Under the pieces are notes generated by a model, which was not told the origin of the DNA, did not search any database, and was given only the letters and a program-made list of their open reading frames with translations. From Bacteriovoracaceae bacterium (lineage in GTDB: Bacteria; Bdellovibrionota; Bacteriovoracia; Bacteriovoracales; Bacteriovoracaceae): a DNA stretch of 64,000 nt. The position numbers and the translations under genes are program-made. The stretch's first letter is position 1; each line of letters opens with the position of its first letter. The DNA is taken from NCBI GenBank assembly GCA_018649885.1, contig JABIHA010000085.1, forward strand, positions 36,744 through 100,743, given 5' to 3'. Of this stretch, positions 2,553-58,255 are shown in pieces.

Positions 2553-4595
2553 TTAGACGTCAATTTTTGAGATGAGATCATCGAAGAAATTCTTTTTATA
2601 AGTTTTAACCTCTTCTTCAGAAAGGTCAGAGAAGCTATTTTTGTCGATATTTTGGTATAGATCATTCGAAATGGTTGCTAAGAATCTGCTGGGAAACCTT
2701 TTGAGGTCTCTTCCATAAATTTTTCGCTCGCAGGCGTAGGTCATAACCATTCTAAGCTTTGCCCTAGTCAGACCCACGTAAGCAAGGCGTCTTTCTTCTT
2801 CTATATCATCACCTTGGGTAATGGATTTCTTGTGAGGGAGCAGTTCTTCTTCCATGCCTACTAAGAAGACGTGATCATACTCAAGGCCTTTAGAGGAGTG
2901 AAGGGTCATTAAAGTGACTTCATTTTTTCTAATATTGTCATCACTTGCAGAGCTCTCATCTTTATCTGGAGTATCTTGTAAGATCATTTTTTCGACAAAG
3001 TTTCGGAGCTTGGCACTTTCGCCAAAGAATTTTGTAAAACGTTCTGCTGACTCTACTAGTCTGGCCAAATCTTCTTTTCTTCTATTGGCCTGTTTTTTTT
3101 GTTTGTAAAACCCATCAATATAAGTGTGGAAGTTTAGTCTTTCTATTAAATCTTTGATTCCATGCTCGAGAGGAGCGCTAGCAATTTTTTGCTTGAACTC
3201 TTCAATTAAATCGACAAAGGCGCTTATACATTTTTCTTTTTTCGGATCTAGTCCTGGACAATCTTTAAAAGCATTGTAGAGATGGATATTTTTCTCTTTT
3301 GCCAGATCAAGATATTTTTCTAGTGTCTTAGCGCCTATTCCTCTCGATGGAACATTGAGGATTCTTCTTAGAGCTATTTCATCTTTAGGATTATGCATTA
3401 TCGAGAGGTATGCCAGAACATCTTTAATCTCTTTTCTCTCGTAGAATTTCTGCCCCCCTACAAGAACATAGGGAACCATAGATATTCGAAGTTGGTCTTC
3501 AAGGGCGGGAAACTGAGTTGTAGATCTCACTAAAACGGCCATATTTGATAAATGTCCGCCCGATGATTGAAATTTAGTGATCTCTTCAACAATAGTCTGC
3601 GCTTCATGATCAGTGTCTGCACACTTCCAAAGGACTGGAGAGATGCCTTCTGTATTTGAAGTTCGAAGAGATTTTTCTTTTCTTCTTTTATTCTCCTTAA
3701 TGACATTATTTGCCAAATTTAAAATAGGCTCAGTTGAGCGGTAATTTTCTTCTAACTTAATGACAGTGCAACCCGAAAAGTGTTTTTCGAAATTTAAGAT
3801 ATTGGTGATATCTGCGCCTCTAAAACTATAAATTGATTGATCATCATCTCCCACAACGCATAGGTTATTATGTGTACTTGTGAGTCCTAAAATCATGGAA
3901 AATTGTAATTGATTTGTATCCTGGTATTCATCGACCATTATATATTGGTATCTTCTGGAATATTTTTCAGCGATTTCTGGATAGAGCTTAAAGAGTTTTA
4001 CTGTTAATAAAATAATATCATCGAAGTCGATGACGTTATAAAATTTCATTTTGTCTGTATAAAATTGGTAGCAGTGTTCAGTAGCTAAGTCGTAATCTAG
4101 GTCTGTGTTGAAGTTATCTGTCCTTGAAAACTCTTCTGATGAAATTCCCGCACTTTTTAGCTTTCCGATTTGGGCCAAGATAGATTTGCGGTCAAATGAC
4201 TTCTCACCTTGGTAGCTGTTGAGGGCCTCTCTGATCAGTGACATTTGATCGGCCGTATCAAAAATGGTGAAGTTTTTGCTGTAGCCTAGTTTTTCGATTT
4301 CTGCTCTGAGTATTTTAAGCGCTAGCGAGTGAAAGGTTGATAGTGTGATTCCCTTTGATTTTTTCTTTCCTAGAAGGCCCGTGACTCTTTCCTTCATTTC
4401 TCTTGCGGCTTTATTGGTGAAGGTGACTGCCAGGATGGTTTTGGGGTCAAGGCCATAGTTTTCAACCATATTGGCCATTCTGTAGGTGATGCTCCTGGTT
4501 TTTCCCGAGCCGGCGCCCGCCAGTATGAGAACTGGTCCCTCAATTGTGTCTGCAGCCTTTCGCTGCTCGTTATTTAGGCCTGAAATGGAAAACAT
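2553..4595 (-). CDS. ATP-dependent DNA helicase, UvrD/PcrA/Rep family
   Basis: N-terminus LNNEQRKAADTIEGPVLILAGAGSGKTRSITYRMANMV (Walker A), then TFTNKAAREMKERV, DEYQDTN and VGDDDQSIYSFRGA, which are helicase superfamily 1 motifs. Confidence 0.9.
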   Translation of the reverse strand: MFSISGLNNEQRKAADTIEGPVLILAGAGSGKTRSITYRMANMVENYGLDPKTILAVTFTNKAAREMKERVTGLLGKKKSKGITLSTFHSLALKILRAEIEKLGYSKNFTIFDTADQMSLIREALNSYQGEKSFDRKSILAQIGKLKSAGISSEEFSRTDNFNTDLDYDLATEHCYQFYTDKMKFYNVIDFDDIILLTVKLFKLYPEIAEKYSRRYQYIMVDEYQDTNQLQFSMILGLTSTHNNLCVVGDDDQSIYSFRGADITNILNFEKHFSGCTVIKLEENYRSTEPILNLANNVIKENKRRKEKSLRTSNTEGISPVLWKCADTDHEAQTIVEEITKFQSSGGHLSNMAVLVRSTTQFPALEDQLRISMVPYVLVGGQKFYERKEIKDVLAYLSIMHNPKDEIALRRILNVPSRGIGAKTLEKYLDLAKEKNIHLYNAFKDCPGLDPKKEKCISAFVDLIEEFKQKIASAPLEHGIKDLIERLNFHTYIDGFYKQKKQANRRKEDLARLVESAERFTKFFGESAKLRNFVEKMILQDTPDKDESSASDDNIRKNEVTLMTLHSSKGLEYDHVFLVGMEEELLPHKKSITQGDDIEEERRLAYVGLTRAKLRMVMTYACERKIYGRDLKRFPSRFLATISNDLYQNIDKNSFSDLSEEEVKTYKKNFFDDLISKIDV

Positions 4596-4738: not shown

Positions 4739-5962
4739 ATGGCCAAACGCAAAAAAGCTAGTGTCAAAAAAAAGGTGGCAAAAAAGAAAGCGACCAAGAA
4801 GGCAGTTGCGCCTAAGGCCACAAAAAAGAAAGCTGGCAAGAAAAAAGCAGCTATAAAGAAGGCCACAAAAAAGAAAGTTGGCAAGAAGAAGGCAGTTAAA
4901 AAGAAAGCTACAAAAAAGAAAGCTGGCAAGAAGAAGGCAGTTAAAAAGAAAGCTACAAAAAAGAAAGCTGGCAAGAAGAAGGCAGTTAAAAAGAAAGCTA
5001 CAAAAAAGAAGACCGGAAAAAGTAAGGTAGCTAAAAAGAAAAGTTCCAAACCAAGCAAAAAGGTAGCAAGTGGAAAAGATGGGGATAAGAACCTTTTTAA
5101 TTCCATGCTGGAGCTAATAAAGATCACATCAACAGTGCTTCCGGATGACTCGCAAAGAGTAATTCTTGCGGCCCTTGAAAAAGAAGAGAAAGATACCACT
5201 GCTGAATATGCAATGGAAATTATAAAGGCCAATATTGAACTTGCAAAAAAGAAGGCCCAACCTATTTGCCAGGATACAGGTACTGTCCTTGTCTATGTCA
5301 ATCATCCTGTAGGCTTTAAGCAGGCAGACTTTGAAAAAGTTTTTAAAAAGGCAGTTGTTGAGGCCACGAAGAAAGGCTATTTGAGGCAAAACTCTGTGGA
5401 CTCCTTAAAAGGGACCAATGACACTCTTAATATTGGGCCGGGCCACCCTGATATCCATTTTCATGAGCATAAAAAAGACTTTGTAGAAGTGAGGTTGATG
5501 CTCAAAGGTGGGGGATGTGAAAATGTGGGGATTCAATATGCTCTGCCTTTTACTTCCCTTGGTGCGGGAAGAGATCTAGGCGGAGTAAGAAAAGTTATTT
5601 TGGATGGTGTGAATAAGGCCCAGGGAAAAGGCTGTGGTCCTGGAGTTTTAGGAATTTGCATCGGTGGAGATAGAGGTTCAGGGTATGCAAAGTCAAAAGA
5701 GCAGCTGCTTAGATCACTGGATGACTCCAACAGTAATCTTGAATTAGATTCACTCGAAAATGATATTGTAGAGTCTGCTAATAAACTTGGTATTGGTCCC
5801 ATGGGGTTTGGGGGAAAAACAACACTTCTTGGTTGTAAGATAGGTGTATTAAATCGACTGCCAGCTAGTTTTTTTGTGTCAATTTCCTATATGTGTTGGG
5901 CCTTTAGAAGACAGGGTCTTACGCTTGATAAGAATGGTAACGTAAAAAAATGGTTGTATTGA
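4739..5962 (+). CDS. Class I (Fe-S) fumarate hydratase alpha subunit with an N-terminal histone-H1-like lysine/alanine-rich extension
   Basis: Start MAKRKK chosen because AGGAGA precedes it; an ATG at 4688 is an alternative. Residues 1-125 are (A/V/T)KKK(A/V/T)GKKK repeats. The remainder has CQDTGTV and the hydro-lyase alpha fold of the tartrate/fumarate family. Confidence 0.8.
   Translation: MAKRKKASVKKKVAKKKATKKAVAPKATKKKAGKKKAAIKKATKKKVGKKKAVKKKATKKKAGKKKAVKKKATKKKAGKKKAVKKKATKKKTGKSKVAKKKSSKPSKKVASGKDGDKNLFNSMLELIKITSTVLPDDSQRVILAALEKEEKDTTAEYAMEIIKANIELAKKKAQPICQDTGTVLVYVNHPVGFKQADFEKVFKKAVVEATKKGYLRQNSVDSLKGTNDTLNIGPGHPDIHFHEHKKDFVEVRLMLKGGGCENVGIQYALPFTSLGAGRDLGGVRKVILDGVNKAQGKGCGPGVLGICIGGDRGSGYAKSKEQLLRSLDDSNSNLELDSLENDIVESANKLGIGPMGFGGKTTLLGCKIGVLNRLPASFFVSISYMCWAFRRQGLTLDKNGNVKKWLY
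4818..5041 (+). repeat. 45-bp coding tandem repeat, about 5 copies, encoding ATKKKAGKKKAVKKK
   Basis: gctacaaaaaagaaagctggcaagaagaaggcagttaaaaagaaa recurs at 4907, 4952 and 4997 with perfect 45-nt spacing. More diverged copies lie at 4862 and 4818. Confidence 0.85.
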
Positions 5963-48732: not shown

Positions 48733-51700
48733 ATGTCAACGGGGTTTCGATTAAGCCGGGCAGTGTTATGCAGCTTGCTAACGGCGTTTTTATTTTTTGG
48801 CAATTTTAATGATTACTCATTATTTGCACAGGATGAAGATTTAACGACAAAAGAGTTTAAATTTGAGGCAGGAGATTTAGAAAAAATTCTAGAACTCTAC
48901 GAAGTGGAAAAGAGAGTCGATTACGTAGATGAAGAAGTAGATGATACGTGTGAAGAGTCTATTCCTCACAATGAAGAAATATGTGGGGATGTTGATTGGA
49001 CTGAAACCGTTTGTGAGGCGATTCCAGGATCAGATAGAGTAGTTTGTGAAGACTATACTGATGTGATTTGTAGGGATGTGACTAGGCAGGAGTGTTCAGA
49101 GGTTCCAACGTGGGTTTGTAAAGAGGGAAGAGCTCCTAGGCATTGTGGAACAGATAGAAGATGCAAGGATATTGGTAAAAAAGTTTGTAAAAATGTCATG
49201 AAAAATATTTGTCGTGATGTTAAGAAAAATGTCTGTAGAAATGAGACACGAAACCAATGTAAGACTGTTACGAAGAAAAAATGTCGTGATGTCAAAAAGA
49301 CAAAAAGAGTTTGTAAGTTTGTTGGAAAAGGTGAGGAGATTTGTAAAAATGTCCCAGGAAAAAAAGTTTGTAAGGATGTAACAAAGAACGAATGTAGGGA
49401 TGTTACCAAAAACGTCTGTAAGCCAGTCAAAAAAATGAAGAAGGTTTGTACTAATGAAGCTGGAGAGAGAGTCTGCAAAGATGTTCCGGGTGAAGAGGTC
49501 TGTAAAGTTGTAACCAAGACCAAAAGAGTATGTACCCCAAAAACCAGAAAAGTATGTAAAAATGTCGGTGGTGGACGAGAGTGTAAAAATGTCCAAAAAA
49601 CGAAGAGAGTATGTAAGACGGTTCCTGGAAAAAAGGAATGTCGTGACGTAGCTGGTAAGAAAGTATGTAAGCCAGTTAGAAAATCACGTAGTGTCTGTAA
49701 TGATGTCCCCGGTAGAGAAATATGTAAAACAGTCTCAGGAAAAAGAGAGTGTAGGCAAGTTAGGAAAACCAGAAGAGTTTGTAATGATGTTCCTGGAAGA
49801 GAAGTTTGTAAAAACGTCCCAGGAAAAAGAACATGCAGGCCGGAGAGAACAACAGAAAGAGTTTGTAATAATGTTCCAGGAAGAGAAGTCTGTAAAAACG
49901 TTCCAGGAAAAAGAACGTGTAGACCTGAAAGAACTACTGAAAGGGTTTGTAGTAACGTTCCTGGAAGAGAAGTTTGTAGAAACGTTCCAGGAAAGAGAAC
50001 TTGTAAACCTGTAAGATCTACAGAAAGAGTTTGTAGCAATGTTCCTGGAAGAGAAGTTTGCAATAACGTTCCTGGCAAAAAGTCTTGTAAAAATGTCAGA
50101 AAGACAAAGAGAGTTTGTAAAAAGGTTGCAGGCCCTGAGAGTTGTAAAAACGTCCCGGGAAGGCAAGTTTGTAAAAATGTTAAAGGACCTCAGTCGTGTC
50201 GTAATGTCCCAGGCAAAAAACAATGTCGTTCTGTAAATAAGCAGGTGTGCTCTAATAAGCCTCAAAGAGTCTGTAAAAAGGGTCCGAGAGGGAAACAAAT
50301 TTGTAAACAGGTAAATAAGAAAGTTTGTAAAAATGTGGCCAAACAAGTTTGTACTCCAGGAAGAAGCAAAAAAGTTTGTACTCCCGGAGCAACTAAAAGA
50401 GTTTGTAATGCTGGACCAAGCAAAAGGGTCTGTACTCCAGGTCGTTCAAAGCAAGTTTGTAATAATGAATCTTATAATGAACAAGTGTGTAGCACAGGAT
50501 CAAGCAGAAGAGTTTGTAAAGCAGGACCTTCAAAAAGAGAATGTAAGAACGTAACAAAGACTACTGAGAAATGTAGTACTGGTTCAAGCAGAAGAGTTTG
50601 TGAAGCAGGACCTTCAAAAAGAGAATGTAAAAACGTCACTAAAACTACTGAAAAATGTAGTACTGGTTCAAGTAGAAGAGTTTGTGAGGCAGGACCTTCA
50701 AAAAGAGAATGTAAGAATGTAACAAAGACTACAGAGAAATGTAGTACTGGTTCGAGTCGAAGAGTCTGTCGGCCAGGGCCAAGTAAAAATGTTTGTAAGA
50801 ATGAGACTTACAATGAGCAAGAGTGCACCGAAGGCTCCAGCAAAAGAGTATGTAAACCAGGGCCGAGTAAAAATGTATGTAAAAATGAGAATTACACAGA
50901 TCAGGAATGTACTACAGGACCTAGTAAGAGAGAGTGTACTGATGGTCGTTCAAAAGAAGTTTGTCGGGATAAGATTGTTACTGAGCGAGTTTGTGAAAAC
51001 AAAGAGGCCAGAAGAGTTTGCGAAGACGTGGCCGATGGTGAGAATTGTCAAAACAAACCAGTGAAAGAAAAAGTCTGCAGACCAGGTCCGAGTCGCAAGA
51101 AATGTCGTCCAGGTCCAGGCAAGAAAGTCTGTGTGAATAAAGAAGTAACTGAAAGAGAATGTAGGGATGTCACAAAGAAAAAATGTGAACAAGTTACAAA
51201 AAATGTATGTCGTCCAGGACCAACCAGAAGGGTCTGTAAGCCAGGTCCAGGAAAAGAGGTTTGCAAGGATGTACCTGTGGTAAAAAATATTTGTAAAGAC
51301 GTTACAAAGGAAGTTTGCCGACCAGTACAAGAAAGAGTTTGCGGTGATATTGTGAAGAGTGTCTGTAGAGATGTTCCCAGAAGAAAATGCAAGCGTATTA
51401 AAAAACAAGTTTGTAGAGATATCCCAAGAAGATGTCCTGAACCAGAGCCAGAGTGTCGTCTTGTTAATAAGAGAGATTGTGGGCCAGTGATCAGACAAAT
51501 TTGTAAAGATGTCATTAAAAAGGACTGCTGGAGTACTGGTGAGGAAGTTAAATGTAGGGACGTACAGAAAACTGAATACATCTGTAATAATGAGACATGG
51601 TATGAGAGCAGGTACTACGCTTGTAAAAAGACAGTAAAGGTTCCAAAAGAAGTTATTGTTAAAGAAACTTATGCAACTATTAACTTTTTATTTGATCTAG

Positions 51701-53321: not shown

Positions 53322-54185
53322 ATGATCCAAGACAATATTGGAAAGGACATTCAAAAAGATGAGAAGAATCCATCTGATTTGAGAATCTACCTGCAGCAAG
53401 AACTGCTTCGCAGGTGTCGTATAAATCCAAATTACAGCTTGCGCGCATTTGCCCGTTCGGCCGGAATAAATCACTCAACTCTTTCACAAATTATTCGCGG
53501 CAAAAGACCTCTCACAGAAAAAAGTATTTTGAAGCTTTGTAAGGGTCTGAACTTTGGGCCTGAAGAAACCTCTGGTTACATTGAAGGTTTTCGGGAAACC
53601 ACAGGAAAAGATGTTAATCAAAAAAATTATCACCAACTCACCATTGATGCCTTTCAAGTTATTTCTGATTGGTATCACTGGGCAATACTTGAGCTTATAA
53701 AAGTTCAGGAGTTTCAAGCTTCAAGCAAGTGGATTTCAAAAGTTCTAGGCATTTCTATTAATGAAGTGAATGTTGCAATTGAAAGACTCAAAAGACTTGA
53801 GATTTTAGAAGTTGATGAAAATGGTAAATGGAATGATCACTCCGATGGTTTTACAACAATCATTGATAAAGAATTTACAAATATAGCACTCAAAAAATAT
53901 CAAAAACAGCTTTTAGAAAAAGCCGCTAATGCCATGGATGACACTGATAGAGATCAAAGAGATCAATCTAGTATGACCATGGCAGTGAATGTAGAAAAAA
54001 TGCCTGAGGCCAAAAAGATAATTAAAAAGTTCAGAAGAGATCTTTGCGATTTATTGGAAGATGGTAACAGACAAGAGGTTTATCAACTTGTGGTCTCACT
54101 CTTTCCTCTTGGCAATGTGAAGAAGGGAAGAAGTACTGAAGAGTCTGAAATCGGACCACGAGAAGCAAATGAAACACAATTTTAG
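53322..54185 (+). CDS. Putative HTH-containing regulator-like protein
   Basis: N-terminal LRAFARSAGINHSTLSQIIRGKR is HTH-like. It resembles a paralogous family of uncharacterised proteins common in Bdellovibrio-like genomes; that is from memory and unverified. Confidence 0.5.
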   Translation: MIQDNIGKDIQKDEKNPSDLRIYLQQELLRRCRINPNYSLRAFARSAGINHSTLSQIIRGKRPLTEKSILKLCKGLNFGPEETSGYIEGFRETTGKDVNQKNYHQLTIDAFQVISDWYHWAILELIKVQEFQASSKWISKVLGISINEVNVAIERLKRLEILEVDENGKWNDHSDGFTTIIDKEFTNIALKKYQKQLLEKAANAMDDTDRDQRDQSSMTMAVNVEKMPEAKKIIKKFRRDLCDLLEDGNRQEVYQLVVSLFPLGNVKKGRSTEESEIGPREANETQF

Positions 54186-55424: not shown

Positions 55425-56324
55425 ATGGTGAAAATAGAACAGCTCTTAATTGAAAATTTTTTCAAATCTATGGATCAGTATTCAGCTGAGTTTATGGAAG
55501 GATACAAGTTTCCTTTAGCATTAAAAAAGAAAATCACAAATTTTTTAAAGTCTTCTTTTAATGATGAGAATTCATATTGTTCATTTAGCGTAAAAAATGG
55601 GCAGGTTGAAAAATTTATTTTGGCCAGGAGTGCTGCAGATATTGGCGGAAACCTGATTGCTATTAGTCATTTTCATTTTAAAGATGTCCCTTCGAAGCAA
55701 GAGTTGAACAAGGTCATTCAATCTATAATGGATTTTTTCCCAAGTTTAAACAGCATAGTAATTGGAGTTTCTCCATCAGATAAAAAAGTTACGAGGATAC
55801 TTAAGGGAAATAAGTTCTTCATTGCTGCAAATGAATTTATTGGAAAAACATCTGATGGGATTAGGTATCTTGAAAAGACCGAAAAGACTAGCGATGTATT
55901 AATTAGGGAGATGAAGTTTAAAAGAGATATAGATTCAGTCTTAAAAATTGAGAGAAGAGCTCATAAAGAAGATGGCTCGAGTAGAATTCAATCATATAGC
56001 AAAAAATTACAAATTGAGATGAAATCTCACTATCAAAAAATGGCTAAACTCGGGACTGCCTTTGTTGCCACAAAAAATGAAAAGGTCATTGGAGCAGTAG
56101 GCTCTTACCCCAATGGAAAATTATCTTTAATAGCGACAATTGTTGTTGATCCAAAGTCTCAAGGACAAGGGGTTTCAAAAAAATTGTATTTGAGGGCCTT
56201 AAAAGATCTAGAAGGCCGTAGAAGTACTTTTTATAAAGGGCAAACTACCACAAGTAATGTGCTGGCCATGGGGAAAAAAATGAAGCGGAAAATTGGCACA
56301 ATCTATTTTAGAAAAGATTATTGA
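55425..56324 (+). CDS. GNAT-family N-acetyltransferase (two-lobed)
   Basis: The C-terminal half has GNAT motif A, VVDPKSQGQGVSKKLYLRALKDL (Q/RxxGxG/A). The N-terminal half is a degenerate GNAT-like fold. Confidence 0.6.
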   Translation: MVKIEQLLIENFFKSMDQYSAEFMEGYKFPLALKKKITNFLKSSFNDENSYCSFSVKNGQVEKFILARSAADIGGNLIAISHFHFKDVPSKQELNKVIQSIMDFFPSLNSIVIGVSPSDKKVTRILKGNKFFIAANEFIGKTSDGIRYLEKTEKTSDVLIREMKFKRDIDSVLKIERRAHKEDGSSRIQSYSKKLQIEMKSHYQKMAKLGTAFVATKNEKVIGAVGSYPNGKLSLIATIVVDPKSQGQGVSKKLYLRALKDLEGRRSTFYKGQTTTSNVLAMGKKMKRKIGTIYFRKDY

Positions 56325-56344
56325 ATACAGTAGTACGATCATTC

Positions 56345-56356
56345 GTACGTCTGCAC
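56345..56356 (+). repeat. 12-bp direct repeat CACTTTTGGGAC, left copy
   Basis: Identical 12-mer at 57737..57748. The extended match is C-CACTTTTGGGAC, 13 of 14. Confidence 0.7.
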
Positions 56357-56847
56357 TTTTGGGACTAACGCAATAAACAAACGAAGTCACATATGCAGTT
56401 CACGGGCCGTTGGAGGGTTGAGCTTCTGAATTAGTAAGGTGGAGGCCCTTTTATCACGGCGTAGTTTAGAGTTATTTTGATGAGTATTGTGATGTGGGTA
56501 TTTTGTAGTTGATATGTATTTCTGAGGATTTCTTTTATAATGGGAAGGTTTAGGGAGGTATTTCATTTTTGGGATTGCTGACTTTGGTGATAGGTTTTAT
56601 TAGGATAAAGTCCTTGGGAGATAGTTTTCCATTCTGTTTTGGATAGGAGAAATGGAAATGAGATTCTTTTTTAGGGGTGCTATACTCCTTAGAACTGCCT
56701 AGGTGGTACTTCATTAACATCATTCAACATCCATAATCAAATTTAAAATATAGCGGTCTTTACAGTGCTTTATGGGGGCAGTATTTGGGTAGTAAAACCG
56801 TGGTAAGCTGCTGGAGAGCTTGGAGGTTAAAGGTGATTATTGAGAAA
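56357..56847 (+). other. About 430-nt GT-rich non-coding region upstream of the HNH gene (candidate structured RNA or long leader)
   Basis: No ORF of 60 aa or more in any frame. Composition differs sharply from the A-rich flanking coding sequence. It holds several GGATAGG-like and GGGAGG-like motifs and a TATAAT at about 56548. It lies inside the unit bounded by the CACTTTTGGGAC repeats. Confidence 0.3.
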
Positions 56848-57702
56848 ATGAGTGATGATAAATTATTAAAAAGTGTTTTACTAGAAGTTAAAAAAGAAAG
56901 GGATCAGCTCCATATTGTGCTTCTTCACTTGAAAGAAATTTATAGAAGAAGATTGTTTACTGAGTACAACTGCCGAACACTTAATGAGTACTGTGTAAAA
57001 GAGCTGGGTTATACTCGTGGAGAAGCCTATTACCGGGTCACCGCGATGAAGTTAATGGCAAACTCGGATCAAATTGAAAAGGCCATCAAAAAAGGAGACC
57101 TCTCTCTAACTGCTGCGGTTGTGGCCAGTGATTATCTCACAAAGCAGCCTGACAAATCGGTGAAAAAAAAAGAGGAAGTTATTTCAAAAATTGTGGGAGT
57201 TCCCATATCAAAAGCAAAAGAGATTTTGTCTACACCACCATCAAAGCCTGAGCACCCTCCAAAAAATGAGCTCACCCCTAAATTAAAGGTCTCTAAGAAA
57301 GTCTTGAAACTTTTGAAAGAGCTACAAGATCTCACAGGAGAGGATCAGGTCAAATTACTTGAAGTGGCTCTTGAAAATAAATTAAAACAAGTGGAAAAAT
57401 GTGAATTAAAAGCAATTCAAGGACCTTCTCCAATACAAAGTGCAAGGTCGAGGTATATTCCCCAAGCAATAAAAAGAAAAATTCGAAGCAGGGCGAACTA
57501 CACCTGCGAGCATGTTAGCACGCACAGAGGAAGGTGCACTGAATCCAGAAATCTGGAGTTTGATCACCACGTCACGGCTTATTCAAAGGGAGGGGGAAAT
57601 ACATTAGAGAATTTAAGACTTGTATGCAAAAACCATAATACCAGACAATTTGTTTTAGACTTTGGTTCGAAATCTTTAGAAAAAATCACTCAGAAAATTT
57701 AG
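56848..57702 (+). CDS. HNH endonuclease with a DUF222-like N-terminal domain
   Basis: C-terminal CEHVSTHRGRCTESRNLEFDHHVTAYSKGGGNTLENLRLVCKNHN is the HNH motif. The N-terminal EIYRRRLFTEYNCRTLNEYCVKELGYTRGEAYYRVTAMKLMANSDQIEKAIKKGDLSLTAAVVASDYL fits the DUF222 (13E12-type) pattern from memory. Start MSDDK; an ATG at 56785 is an alternative. Confidence 0.75.
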   Translation: MSDDKLLKSVLLEVKKERDQLHIVLLHLKEIYRRRLFTEYNCRTLNEYCVKELGYTRGEAYYRVTAMKLMANSDQIEKAIKKGDLSLTAAVVASDYLTKQPDKSVKKKEEVISKIVGVPISKAKEILSTPPSKPEHPPKNELTPKLKVSKKVLKLLKELQDLTGEDQVKLLEVALENKLKQVEKCELKAIQGPSPIQSARSRYIPQAIKRKIRSRANYTCEHVSTHRGRCTESRNLEFDHHVTAYSKGGGNTLENLRLVCKNHNTRQFVLDFGSKSLEKITQKI

Positions 57703-57736
57703 CGGAAGGATATGAAAAGTGTATTTTGGTACTCCA

Positions 57737-57748
57737 CACTTTTGGGAC
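57737..57748 (+). repeat. 12-bp direct repeat CACTTTTGGGAC, right copy
   Basis: 35 nt after the HNH stop codon. Confidence 0.7.
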
Positions 57749-57871
57749 GTATCTTCATACTTAGCGAGAGGATTAATTGACTCAATCCTATACCAAAAAG
57801 GGCCATGTAATGAATCATAAAAAAAGCCTGCATGTCAGCAGGCTCCATATCAAATTATAATTTCAGCATAT

Positions 57872-58255
57872 TTACTTTATTTCAATACACAGCTCATGAC
57901 CTACTAAAGATTTGGCAAATGCTTCTGAACTATCTTTATTTGACTCTGGACAAGCAACAGCCCCCTCATTTAATTTACGTGTGAAATAAAATATTCCGAA
58001 TGAGGAAATTGGAGAATGCTCGTCTTTTTTAAACCAAACACCATACTCACATCCAGGCTTGCCTAAATTAATCGCCATTTGGCCAGATAAACCATTTGGT
58101 ATATCTGTAATTGTTTCTTTCATTCTCGTTTCTTGAATATAGATAGTTTTGCTTTCAAGTTCAGCTAATAGTTCATCTGTCACCGTCATGCAGTGCTCTC
58201 CTGCTTGAGACAGTGCTGAAATTGTTAGAAGCCCAATACAAATTAGTTTTTTCAT
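57872..58255 (-). CDS. Small secreted hypothetical protein
   Basis: Start MKKLICIGLLTISALSQA (signal peptide), preceded by a GGGGGT RBS. 4 Cys. Confidence 0.5.
   Translation of the reverse strand: MKKLICIGLLTISALSQAGEHCMTVTDELLAELESKTIYIQETRMKETITDIPNGLSGQMAINLGKPGCEYGVWFKKDEHSPISSFGIFYFTRKLNEGAVACPESNKDSSEAFAKSLVGHELCIEIK

Follow-up and report, generated by a model that had tools for sequence, protein, structure and literature searches.

A probable IS-like selfish element of the DUF222-HNH superfamily with a long non-coding leader in Bdellovibrionota

Introduction

Proteins of the DUF222-HNH type are routinely annotated simply as 'HNH endonuclease', although their family is very large. The best-known members belong to REP13E12 of M. 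tuberculosis, a DUF222-HNH repeat that has been known since 1999 according to the citing passage of PMC10589994 (Gordon et al. 1999). The mechanism of REP13E12 has still not been worked out after 25 years, and no mechanistic description was found in the literature on DUF222-HNH proteins, REP13E12, HNH insertion sequences and multicopy HNH/ParB elements. The second system of reference is IscB with its HEARO RNA, of the IS200/IS605 superfamily (PMC13565253), in which a long non-coding region lies 5' of an HNH-containing gene in a small mobile element.

Here, both systems were compared with a unit at ~56345-57748 of a 64-kb stretch of Bdellovibrionota DNA, which was analysed as a whole and is referred to as the window. 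Like REP13E12, the unit is a dispersed, multi-copy repeat of ~1.4 kb with a gene for an HNH nuclease, whose N-terminal part is of DUF222 type in REP13E12 and DUF222-like here. With IscB it has in common the long non-coding region 5' of the HNH gene. The unit probably represents a small IS-like selfish element with a single gene, of which several copies occur in Bdellovibrionota. Together with its relatives it provides a clean comparative system for the mobility question of DUF222-HNH elements: the elements are short, carry a single gene, have definable borders and a conserved 5' leader, occur as several diverged copies per genome and include one subfamily with inverted repeats and target duplications.

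Results

Layout, copies and flanks

All features of the unit lie on the plus strand. The left terminal box GTACGTCTGCACTTTTGGGAC (56345-56365), at which similarity between copies begins, is followed by the remainder of the left-end region as delimited by copy alignments, TAACGCAATAAACAAACGAAGTCACAT (56366-56391), and by a core non-coding leader (56392-56847) that aligns nearly without gaps to five other copies. The gene (56848-57702) encodes a protein of 284 aa. A short 3' tail (57703-57728) is unconserved among copies, similarity between them stopping a few bases from the stop codon, and the unit closes with the right terminal box GTACTCCACACTTTTGGGAC (57729-57748). Elements of the family measure 1.3-1.75 kb and contain one gene only. 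The exact ends are putative, as are the origins proposed below for the flanking repeats. A GNAT gene is located upstream and an arginine decarboxylase gene ~950 nt downstream, in agreement with the initial annotation.

That annotation had proposed an accessory, self-mobile HNH element, and the distribution of copies supports this. Six distinct copies (window, L001, L002, L003, L043 and L045), most of them from the same metagenomes and thus not necessarily from one genome, have 83-91% DNA identity from the left box to the stop codon. Their flanks are unrelated (Memo/AMMECR1, cytochrome/PMT_2, a B12-binding region, GNAT and others). The family is multi-copy within single genomes, with 6, 5, 4, 2 and 2 relatives in five Bdellovibrionota genomes, as a dispersed repeat of about 1.4 kb. 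Many contigs of the family measure just 1.4-2 kb, which is what collapsed repeats would give. The element is thus mobile and present in several copies per genome.

One orthologous insertion beside a GNAT gene in the window and in L003 was considered and rejected; the two GNAT proteins are unrelated, as are the other neighbouring proteins of the two copies. A search of 5.8 billion proteins with the GNAT protein of the window returned, at E <= 1e-10, nothing but the protein itself; there is therefore no closely related genome for comparison, and no empty site was found. Proteins that occur in identical form on several contigs (P0017, P0031) represent the same locus in different samples and were thus rejected as recent transpositions. 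Phage and plasmid collections gave no match by tblastn and PADLOC returned only a weak ZorE HNH match, so that an origin from a phage, a plasmid or a defence system was likewise rejected.

Copy-specific direct repeats flank four copies (L045, 137 nt; L001, 20/22; L003, 14/14; L002, 13/15), with z values against non-cognate pairs of 53 for L045, 5.2 for L001 and 4.0 for L003. They do not abut the conserved ends, with left-hand gaps of 0-60 nt and right-hand gaps of 0-120 nt. For the window copy, no copy-specific flanking repeat was found beyond the box itself. With lengths of 14-137 nt and variable distances, the repeats in this subfamily do not amount to a target duplication of fixed length abutting the ends. 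Comparison of left ends with reverse-complemented right ends revealed no terminal inverted repeats in the window's subfamily (cognate scores 8-16; non-cognate mean 9.9, maximum 17).

Sister subfamilies

In genome OZ245336, the copies of a sister subfamily (the OZ245336 subfamily) carry a perfect terminal inverted repeat of 26 nt. Two of them, 99% identical, are flanked by 5-bp direct duplications (GGAAT and ATTCC), and joining of the flanks of these two copies rebuilds a REP-like GTCATTCC...GGAATCC repeat. Terminal inverted repeats of ~75 nt were found in KLAP30 copies, and no terminal repeat was evident in CAYVRZ copies when their ends were inspected. A single transposase family would not be expected to vary in this way at its ends. 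In each of the four subfamilies analysed, purifying selection acts on the gene.

With ends that differ among subfamilies and a gene that stays constant, the gene and leader could be a free-standing, homing-endonuclease-like cassette inside pre-existing MITE- or REP-like repeats. It would spread by cutting empty repeat copies followed by recombination copying, or would ride a repeat moved by another transposase. The position of the OZ245336 copies within REP-like repeats fits such a passenger, as does a gene-less solo left end of 65 nt in L045 (1699-1763). One relative adjoins a DDE transposase gene. Furthermore, L037 and L038 are 99% identical despite a broken HNH frame, which implies that they were moved or copied in trans. 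The 5-bp duplications of OZ245336, however, point to insertion at a staggered cut and not to repair by homologous recombination. The left-end box is also not abundant, the window containing only two, both at the element, and in L001, L003 and L045 the left box lies between the two arms of the copy-specific duplication, which indicates that the box arrived with the insert. A passenger cassette is therefore regarded as doubtful, and an IS-like element bringing its own ends is preferred.

Encoded protein

The gene was read from the ATG at 56848 (284 aa); the alternative TTG at 56785, chosen by NCBI, gives 305 aa. As initially annotated, it is an HNH gene; it is intact, and the catalytic and zinc residues are kept: C220, C230, D239-H240, N255, C260 and H263-N264 are invariant or nearly so. 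The Pfam HNH profile scores 21.2 bits on the window protein, just below its cut-off of 21.4, and matches 40 of the 41 relatives. A DUF222-like N-terminus had also been proposed. The window protein itself has no Pfam DUF222 match at E <= 0.1, whereas 10 of the 41 relatives do match (best E 6.5e-6), and the motif ELGYS..A.RR..A.RL is common to the whole alignment of relatives. The protein probably belongs to the large DUF222-HNH superfamily, the same as REP13E12 and the mycobacterial DUF222-HNH repeats, and the earlier suggestion of an undescribed element holds only in part. At E <= 1e-30 the family comprises 7,749 clusters (50% identity).

The protein consists of an N-terminal HTH (DUF222-like), a helical or RHH-like middle part and a C-terminal HNH domain. 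In the protein model the N-terminal domain resembles the double-stranded-DNA-binding HTH of KorB/ParB, and no RNA-binding module is seen; judged from this model, the protein would recognise the end box via its HTH domain. The absence of RuvC noted earlier was confirmed, Pfam returning HNH only and the rest of the model being HTH and helical. The NCBIfam profile guided_IscB reaches 20.1 bits against a cut-off of 175 and aligns only at profile positions 177-235, which are its HNH part. No DDE, DEDD, HUH, serine or tyrosine transposase is encoded: there is one ORF, for which Pfam, NCBIfam, PHROGs and PADLOC gave HNH-type matches only.

Leader

A non-coding stretch of ~430 nt without ORF had been described. 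It is non-coding and longer than that, extending over 523 nt from the GNAT stop codon (56324) to the ATG at 56848, or over 460 nt if the TTG start at 56785 is used. A hidden ORF was rejected on the basis of 5-15 stops in every frame of all six copies. The G+T richness was confirmed; with 0.68, positions 56401-56700 are the maximum of all 300-nt windows in the stretch analysed (mean 0.513, sd 0.04). A TATAAT is present at ~56536 as previously noted, and is not conserved in the other copies. The leader further contains an invariant GC hairpin (stems 56404-56410 and 56442-56448) with the T run TTTTAT behind it. A promoter scan showed an extended -10-like TGCTATACT of weak conservation at 56678-56686, and a ribosome-binding site, AAGGTGA, lies at 56830-56836. 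No 6-mer was enriched over shuffles in a search for iteron-like repeats.

This G+T-rich leader (460-520 nt) is an integral, co-mobilised part of the element. Over the six copies its mean pairwise identity is 0.82 with almost no insertions or deletions, and in all four subfamilies its conservation equals or exceeds that of third codon positions; in OZ245336 the values are 0.94 for the leader and 0.73-0.78 for third codon positions of the gene. The near-absence of indels and the conservation in OZ245336 indicate that the leader has some function. Most likely it contains a promoter, a 5' UTR and cis-acting DNA.

The initial annotation had compared the leader with HEARO/omega-RNA or another structured RNA partner. 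A functional non-coding RNA partner of the HNH protein, be it a guide, a bridge or a scaffold, would account for the near-gapless alignment over 450 nt at 18% divergence, for the conservation just described and for the IscB-like layout of end box, long non-coding leader and nuclease gene on one strand. IscB is also the closest NCBIfam HNH profile, at a mere 20-25 bits. The tests performed did not support the analogy. With Rfam 15 (cmscan), nothing reached the gathering score in the window or in 11 related loci, which included the five other copies of the subfamily. The Rfam HEARO model that had been proposed as a check gave no match at E <= 10 in 56250-57900, where only weak chance matches and a terminator-like hairpin appeared. 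Folding was no better than that of shuffled sequence. For the window leader, z was +0.87 (plus strand) and -0.84 (minus strand); the OZ leader had a z of 0.0.

Extensive folding was obtained on the plus strand only, and the minus strand gave no compensatory pairs. On the RNAalifold structure of the plus strand there are 8 compensated pairs vs 3.4 +/- 1.4 in shuffles, a biased count, since the same six sequences had served to derive the structure; the covariation term for these six leaders (~82% identical) is +2.43 and thus unfavourable. Leader identity (0.82) is close to that of four-fold degenerate sites (0.805; six copies). Matches or complementarity between leader and flanks were no better for cognate than for non-cognate combinations (cognate maximum 11; non-cognate mean 8.6, maximum 12), in a crude comparison that sees ~10 nt or more. 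A leader profile searched with nhmmer against 49 loci gave similarity within the window's own subfamily only; leaders of the other subfamilies have no sequence in common with it, and the six leaders are the only homologous ones. Some relatives have just 65-150 nt upstream of the gene. The contig of P0007 (40% identity) has 83 nt upstream, too little to lengthen the leader alignment. The 284-aa protein, made up of HTH, helical part and HNH, has neither RuvC nor PLMP, wedge or REC-like part. A partner RNA is accordingly considered quite unlikely, and nothing shows an RNA of the guide type; the leader is most likely not a HEARO/omega-type guide RNA. The preferred reading remains an IS-like element with a leader acting in cis.

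Terminal boxes

The window has two exact occurrences of the 12-mer CACTTTTGGGAC and no others: 56354-56365 and 57737-57748. The initial annotation had recorded two occurrences and correctly placed the second; the first had been put at 56345, 9 nt from its true start at 56354. Position 56345 is the start of a longer imperfect repeat, the left box GTACGTCTGCACTTTTGGGAC (56345-56365), which matches the right box GTACTCCACACTTTTGGGAC (57729-57748) at 17 of 21 positions. By eye, the right box matches the left box of L003 (GTACTTCCACACTTTTGGGAC) even better. Among the six copies, five carry the left box at their left end, at different loci, in the form GT(A)C.TC.(A/G)(C/T)A(C/A)(T/C)TTTGGGACT; L043 is the copy without it. 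The GTAC that opens the left box is the 3' arm of a small hairpin, GTACGA-TCAT-TCGTAC (56333-56348). Further inward, TAAATGCAAT..AAC..ACTAAGTC.CAT is common to the window, L001, L002 and the solo left end in L045. An A-rich segment of ~85-110 nt in the left-end region is carried by L001 and L002 and is missing from the window copy.

A simple target-site duplication, as first suggested, does not explain the 12-mer, since the left one is kept in copies at different loci and is thus element sequence and not target sequence. Its assignment to the element ends was borne out. Judging from the aligned copies, the 12-mer appears to be the core of a ~21-nt terminal box that marks the left end of the element and seems to recur in degraded form just past the stop codon, giving an imperfect terminal direct repeat. 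Degenerate box-like sequences were also found 3' of the stop codon in L001, L002 and L003, and the post-stop sequence of L002 has ~22/38 matches to its own left end (manual count).

Boxes at both ends of these four copies would suit an integrative element with a circular form, in which recombination between terminal boxes, or nicking and repair, excises a circle, leaves a single box behind and is followed by integration at box-like targets. Excision might have left the solo left end of L045 as a scar, and the right box of the window resembles the left-box consensus of the family rather than arbitrary target DNA. On the other hand, L043 and L045 have no right box and those of the other copies are short and degenerate, no recombinase is encoded, and the flanking duplications of 14-137 nt would be left unexplained. 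Circle formation is hence judged very unlikely, and insertion as an IS-like element is retained. The view that the HNH gene is merely resident, with a long 5' untranslated region and a 12-mer repeated by chance, can be dismissed: an exact direct repeat of at least 12 nt at a distance of at least 1 kb arose in 2% of 500 dinucleotide shuffles of 56250-57850, which makes the 12-mer repeat taken alone unusual and not decisive, but the copies lie scattered among unrelated contexts, and their similarity stops precisely at the borders of the unit.

Discussion

Movement of the element may be pictured as follows. The KorB/ParB-like HTH domain would bind the terminal box, the HNH domain would nick or cut the element ends and/or the target, and insertion would be completed by host repair synthesis. 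Nicking or cutting with subsequent host repair would explain why the duplications at the flanks vary in length and in some cases include filler DNA.

It is possible, and is put forward here tentatively, that the KorB/ParB-like-HTH and HNH protein is itself the mobility enzyme, an HNH 'transposase' of a large unrecognised IS-like class that includes REP13E12, with the leader as an essential cis-acting DNA region or as an RNA cofactor. Such a role is compatible with elements that carry a single gene under purifying selection, with the inverted repeats and 5-bp duplications of one subfamily and with leaders whose conservation is no lower than that of silent sites. HNH enzymes are not known to catalyse transposition. 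If the HNH protein alone moves these elements, its chemistry would be one that is absent among known transposases. If it does not, the element is one more small selfish element and an ordinary result, which would still serve as a warning that a long leader beside an HNH gene is not automatically a guide RNA.

Comparison with known systems

The HNH domain is weakly similar to that of IscB by profile. In contrast to IscB, RuvC, bridge helix, PLMP, a HEARO RNA match, a structure signal and a guide-like relation of leader and flank are absent here, and DNA recognition is predicted from the protein model to proceed via the HTH domain.

Members of IS110/IS1111 resemble the window's subfamily in the lack of inverted repeats, in a long non-coding region beside a single gene and in a specific or repeat-like site preference. 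They differ in that no DEDD recombinase is present here and no evidence was seen of RNA loops matching target and donor.

Free-standing HNH homing endonuclease genes of phages and introns are likewise selfish genes that combine a DNA-binding module with HNH (PHROG HNH families). The present elements, however, are not bound to one conserved host gene or site; they have no phage match and occupy dispersed, unrelated intergenic sites.

Classical insertion sequences are similar in size, in the single gene, in multiple diverged copies per genome and in the targeting of REP-like repeats, and the OZ245336 subfamily shares with them inverted repeats (26 nt) and 5-bp duplications. The encoded protein is an HNH nuclease and not a DDE, DEDD, HUH, serine or tyrosine enzyme, and the window's subfamily differs in lacking inverted repeats and in the varying length of its flanking duplications.

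Finally, REP13E12 belongs to hosts among the Actinobacteria, whereas the host phylum here is Bdellovibrionota, and the window protein and all but 10 of its 41 relatives stay below the Pfam DUF222 threshold. It is for the Bdellovibrionota elements that a long conserved 5' leader with a terminal box or, in a sister subfamily, inverted repeats with 5-bp duplications are described.

Sequence of the unit

The 64-kb window contained just two copies of the 12-mer CACTTTTGGGAC (56354-56365 and 57737-57748). The initial annotation had reported both copies and placed the left one 9 nt off, at 56345, where an imperfect repeat begins that is longer and encloses the 12-mer (GTACGTCTGCACTTTTGGGAC, 56345-56365, left box; GTACTCCACACTTTTGGGAC, 57729-57748, right box). 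When the region was shuffled with dinucleotides preserved, 2% of the shuffles gave an exact repeat of at least 12 nt with copies at least 1 kb apart. Both 12-mer copies bracket a non-coding stretch (leader; core leader, 56392-56847) and a single ORF, the HNH gene (56848-57702, plus strand). The long G+T-rich non-coding region described initially was confirmed: no open frame was found, with stops throughout all six frames in every copy, and 56401-56700 was the G+T maximum over 300-nt stretches of the window (0.68; mean 0.513, sd 0.04). Its length was 523 nt from the stop codon of the upstream GNAT gene (56324) to ATG 56848, or 460 nt if the gene starts at TTG 56785 (NCBI annotation). ATG 56848 is preceded at 11 nt by the RBS AAGGTGA and agrees with N-termini across the wider family. 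Upstream of it (56785-56847), the frame was open for 15-23 codons in all copies, and gene callers used an upstream TTG or GTG. Since this segment is open and strongly conserved (0.88) but also holds the RBS, the gene start is ambiguous.

The neighbours were as initially described, with the GNAT gene on the 5' side and a polyamine-type gene (arginine decarboxylase) approximately 950 nt downstream; a further neighbour is a small minus-strand gene with a terminator at 57823-57846. No relative of the GNAT protein was found among 5.8 billion proteins, so that no empty site was available for comparison. A gene for an HTH_3 and DUF4423 protein (DUF4423 E 4.6e-45) was located at 53322-54185, 2 kb 5' of the element. 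At 49000-51500, a large ORF contains sub-repeats of 84 nt (28 codons) and 27 nt in a very long array, with dozens of units (60-100% identical) centred on TGTAAAAA(T/C)GT(T/C)CC(A/T)GGA, which would encode cysteine-rich repeats of the C-x-x-V-P-G type. Tandem 15-nt and 45-nt repeats at 4750-5050 (AAAAAGAAAGCTGGCAAGAAG and similar) would specify a low-complexity segment rich in lysine and alanine and resembling histone H1.

HNH protein

Pfam HNH was matched by the window protein (284 aa) with 21.2 bits and by 40 of 41 relatives, which bore out the HNH gene annotated 3' of the leader. Sequence profiles recovered nothing beyond HNH in the window protein; weak matches were to the HNH part of IscB, to ZorE and to phage HNH families. 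Neither RuvC, as already noted, nor a recognisable RNA-binding module was found in it. The proposed DUF222-like N-terminus was detected by Pfam in 10 of the 41 relatives, but not by profiles in the window protein itself. As modelled, the protein was shown to combine an HTH domain, typical of sequence-specific double-stranded-DNA binding, with an HNH nuclease. Catalytic and zinc residues were conserved throughout the family, for which a profile search yielded 7,749 clusters (50% identity) at E <= 1e-30, with proteins mostly of 300-350 aa. Identity at codon positions 1, 2 and 3 was 0.92, 0.94 and 0.81 among six copies and the ratios were similar in other subfamilies, so that function of the gene is maintained across dispersed copies.

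Copies and mobility

The window protein was recovered with 100% identity from a Bacteriovoracaceae MAG, annotated there as 'HNH endonuclease'. Genes for 86-89% identical proteins were found in differing neighbourhoods: between Memo and AMMECR1 genes, 3' of a multihaem cytochrome gene, near acyl-CoA metabolism genes, and 3' of a GNAT gene unrelated to that of the window. Six distinct DNA copies (window, L001, L002, L003, L043 and L045; the window's subfamily) shared 83-91% mutual identity, in agreement with the accessory mobile insertion suggested initially. Similarity spanned 56391-57701, that is core leader and gene, and ended a few bases from the stop codon. More distant relatives (26-39% protein identity) were multi-copy inside single Bdellovibrionota genomes, with six copies in CAYVRZ (a Pseudobdellovibrionaceae MAG), five in KLAP30, four in the complete chromosome OZ245336 and two in each of two further MAGs. 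Copies from the same genome were 75-99% identical with sharp borders. Many family-bearing contigs were only 1.4-2 kb long, as expected if repeats break assemblies. Phage and plasmid collections gave no match to the family. The unit is a selfish, dispersed, single-gene element.

A distant member (P0031, L052 319-1191) was located 1.5 kb 3' of a DDE_Tnp_1 transposase gene, in what may be a mobile-element nest.

Element ends

End comparisons revealed no terminal inverted repeats in the window's subfamily, and two kinds of direct repeat. The first is the box. The left box and the subsequent TAAATGCAAT..ACTAAGTC.CAT were common to five of the six copies (L043 is without left box), so the left 12-mer is element sequence and not a duplicated target, one of the two origins initially proposed. 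These sequences are separated from the core leader by an A-rich segment of variable length (25-130 nt), of which the window copy lost approximately 85-110 nt. A solo, gene-less 65-nt left end was located at L045 1699-1763, 270 nt upstream of the full element. Box-like sequences were present approximately 10-30 nt past the stop codon in four copies: the window (17/21 positions shared with its own left box), L002 (about 22/38 against its own left end, including TGCAATGA, counted by hand from the sequence), L001 (CATTTTTGGGCT) and L003 (GCCATTTTGG). The window's right box was closer to the left box of L003 than to its own. The right box is characteristic of the element family, as part of an imperfect terminal direct repeat, and does not represent newly duplicated target DNA.

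The second kind is copy-specific, at a distance of 0-60 nt from the left box on its outer side and of 0-120 nt past the stop codon. L045 is bracketed by a 137-nt repeat (82% identical; 1799-1935 and 3369-3505) that duplicates the 3' end of the adjacent 483-aa minus-strand gene. Shorter repeats flanked L001 (22 nt, 20/22, the left copy being the upstream gene's 3' end), L003 (14 nt, 14/14) and L002 (15 nt, 13/15). Against non-cognate pairs, z was 53 for L045, 5.2 for L001 and 4.0 for L003. No such repeat was found at the window copy. A DDE transposase would be expected to leave a tidier pattern. Insertion at staggered nicks, finished by host repair and in some cases with filler DNA, seems a closer fit; alternatively, insertion and excision may have recurred at the same places.

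Other subfamilies had different ends. OZ245336 copies carried a perfect 26-nt terminal inverted repeat (TGTATGTGTTCAGTAATTCGCTGACA), and KLAP30 copies inverted repeats of approximately 75 nt. Of two 99%-identical OZ245336 copies (L037, L038), one was flanked by the 5-bp direct repeat GGAAT and the other by ATTCC. When the flanks were joined, a REP-like GTCATTCC...GGAATCC unit repeated in OZ245336 was restored, and GTCATTCC was also on the left flank of a third copy (L032). The OZ245336 elements are seated in REP-like repeats with GGAAT or ATTCC duplications. The palindrome GTCATTCC(C/T)G...(C/A)GGGAATCC was abundant around them (L037 2400-2535; L038 4280-4340; L032 2490-2570 and 2940-3000), and tandem CTGTCATCCCTGCTTAT units were present. 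In L037 and L038 the HNH frame (2860-3147) is broken and open for only 96 codons, yet both occupy different loci with intact ends, which implies that they were moved or copied with the help of another copy.

Inspection of CAYVRZ ends revealed no evident terminal repeats. Isolated 35-100-nt HNH-gene fragments, encoding ..KSPAPDIKRRIT.. from just before the HNH domain, were seen near intact copies (L022 2650-2712; L027 461-495 and 4377-4479). In L022, a perfect palindrome (stem of approximately 20 bp) made up of a fragment and its inverse lies directly 5' of the element's left end. These fragments may derive from decayed copies or mark a recombination hotspot.

Insertion mechanism and role of the leader

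In the proposed mechanism, the HTH domain would recognise the terminal box (the inverted repeats in other subfamilies), the HNH domain would nick or cut the element ends and/or the target, and host repair synthesis would finish insertion, yielding the flanking duplications. The 5-bp duplications point to insertion at a staggered cut, at least in OZ245336. HNH enzymes are not known to function as transposases, and mainly for this reason confidence in the mechanism is moderate. That the HNH gene is a passenger or homing cassette within other repeats is doubtful.

An RNA role for the leader, as cofactor, structured RNA or guide RNA, is unproven and judged unlikely from the evidence so far. In its favour, the leader was almost indel-free over 450 nt and in no subfamily less conserved than third codon positions (0.73 vs 0.69; 0.77 vs 0.73), far above them in OZ245336 (0.94 vs 0.73-0.78). 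Extensive folding was confined to the gene strand, with 8 compensated pairs against 3.4 expected, a count biased by predicting the structure from the same six sequences. However, no Rfam family, HEARO included, matched leaders of the window's subfamily or three others; folding energy was no better than for shuffled sequence, and the RNAalifold covariation term (six sequences) was unfavourable. Leader identity (0.82) equalled that of four-fold degenerate sites (0.805), and no copy-specific similarity or complementarity to the flanks was detected. No leader sequence common to different subfamilies was found, and ORF-free DNA 5' of the gene was only 65-150 nt long in several relatives.

Conserved parts included the last 60 nt with the RBS and, at 56404-56454, a GC hairpin that is invariant and has TTTTAT after it. 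An extended -10-like TGCTATACT (56678-56686) was only partly conserved, and the TATAAT noted initially, although present, was not conserved among other copies. The near-absence of indels, the conservation and the folding confined to the gene strand speak for some function of the leader. We conclude that it is a co-mobilised part of the element, probably carrying promoter, untranslated region and cis-acting DNA. Movement by a circle-and-box recombination cycle is improbable.

Comparison with known systems

The initial likening to HEARO/omega-RNA was not upheld, as membership in the IscB/HEARO class failed on every tested feature. The window's subfamily also falls outside the classical IS definition, to which sister subfamilies conform in part. 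In the literature searched, no mechanistic description of HNH-encoding insertion sequences was found. The main interest lies in comparative data that render the movement of DUF222-HNH repeats testable. Among described elements, the REP13E12 / DUF222-HNH family of M. tuberculosis comes closest, an approximately 1.4-kb repeat known since 1999 and still listed just as a 'repetitive element' (PMC10589994). The window element is best regarded as a variant of this known, poorly understood kind, the DUF222-HNH repeats.
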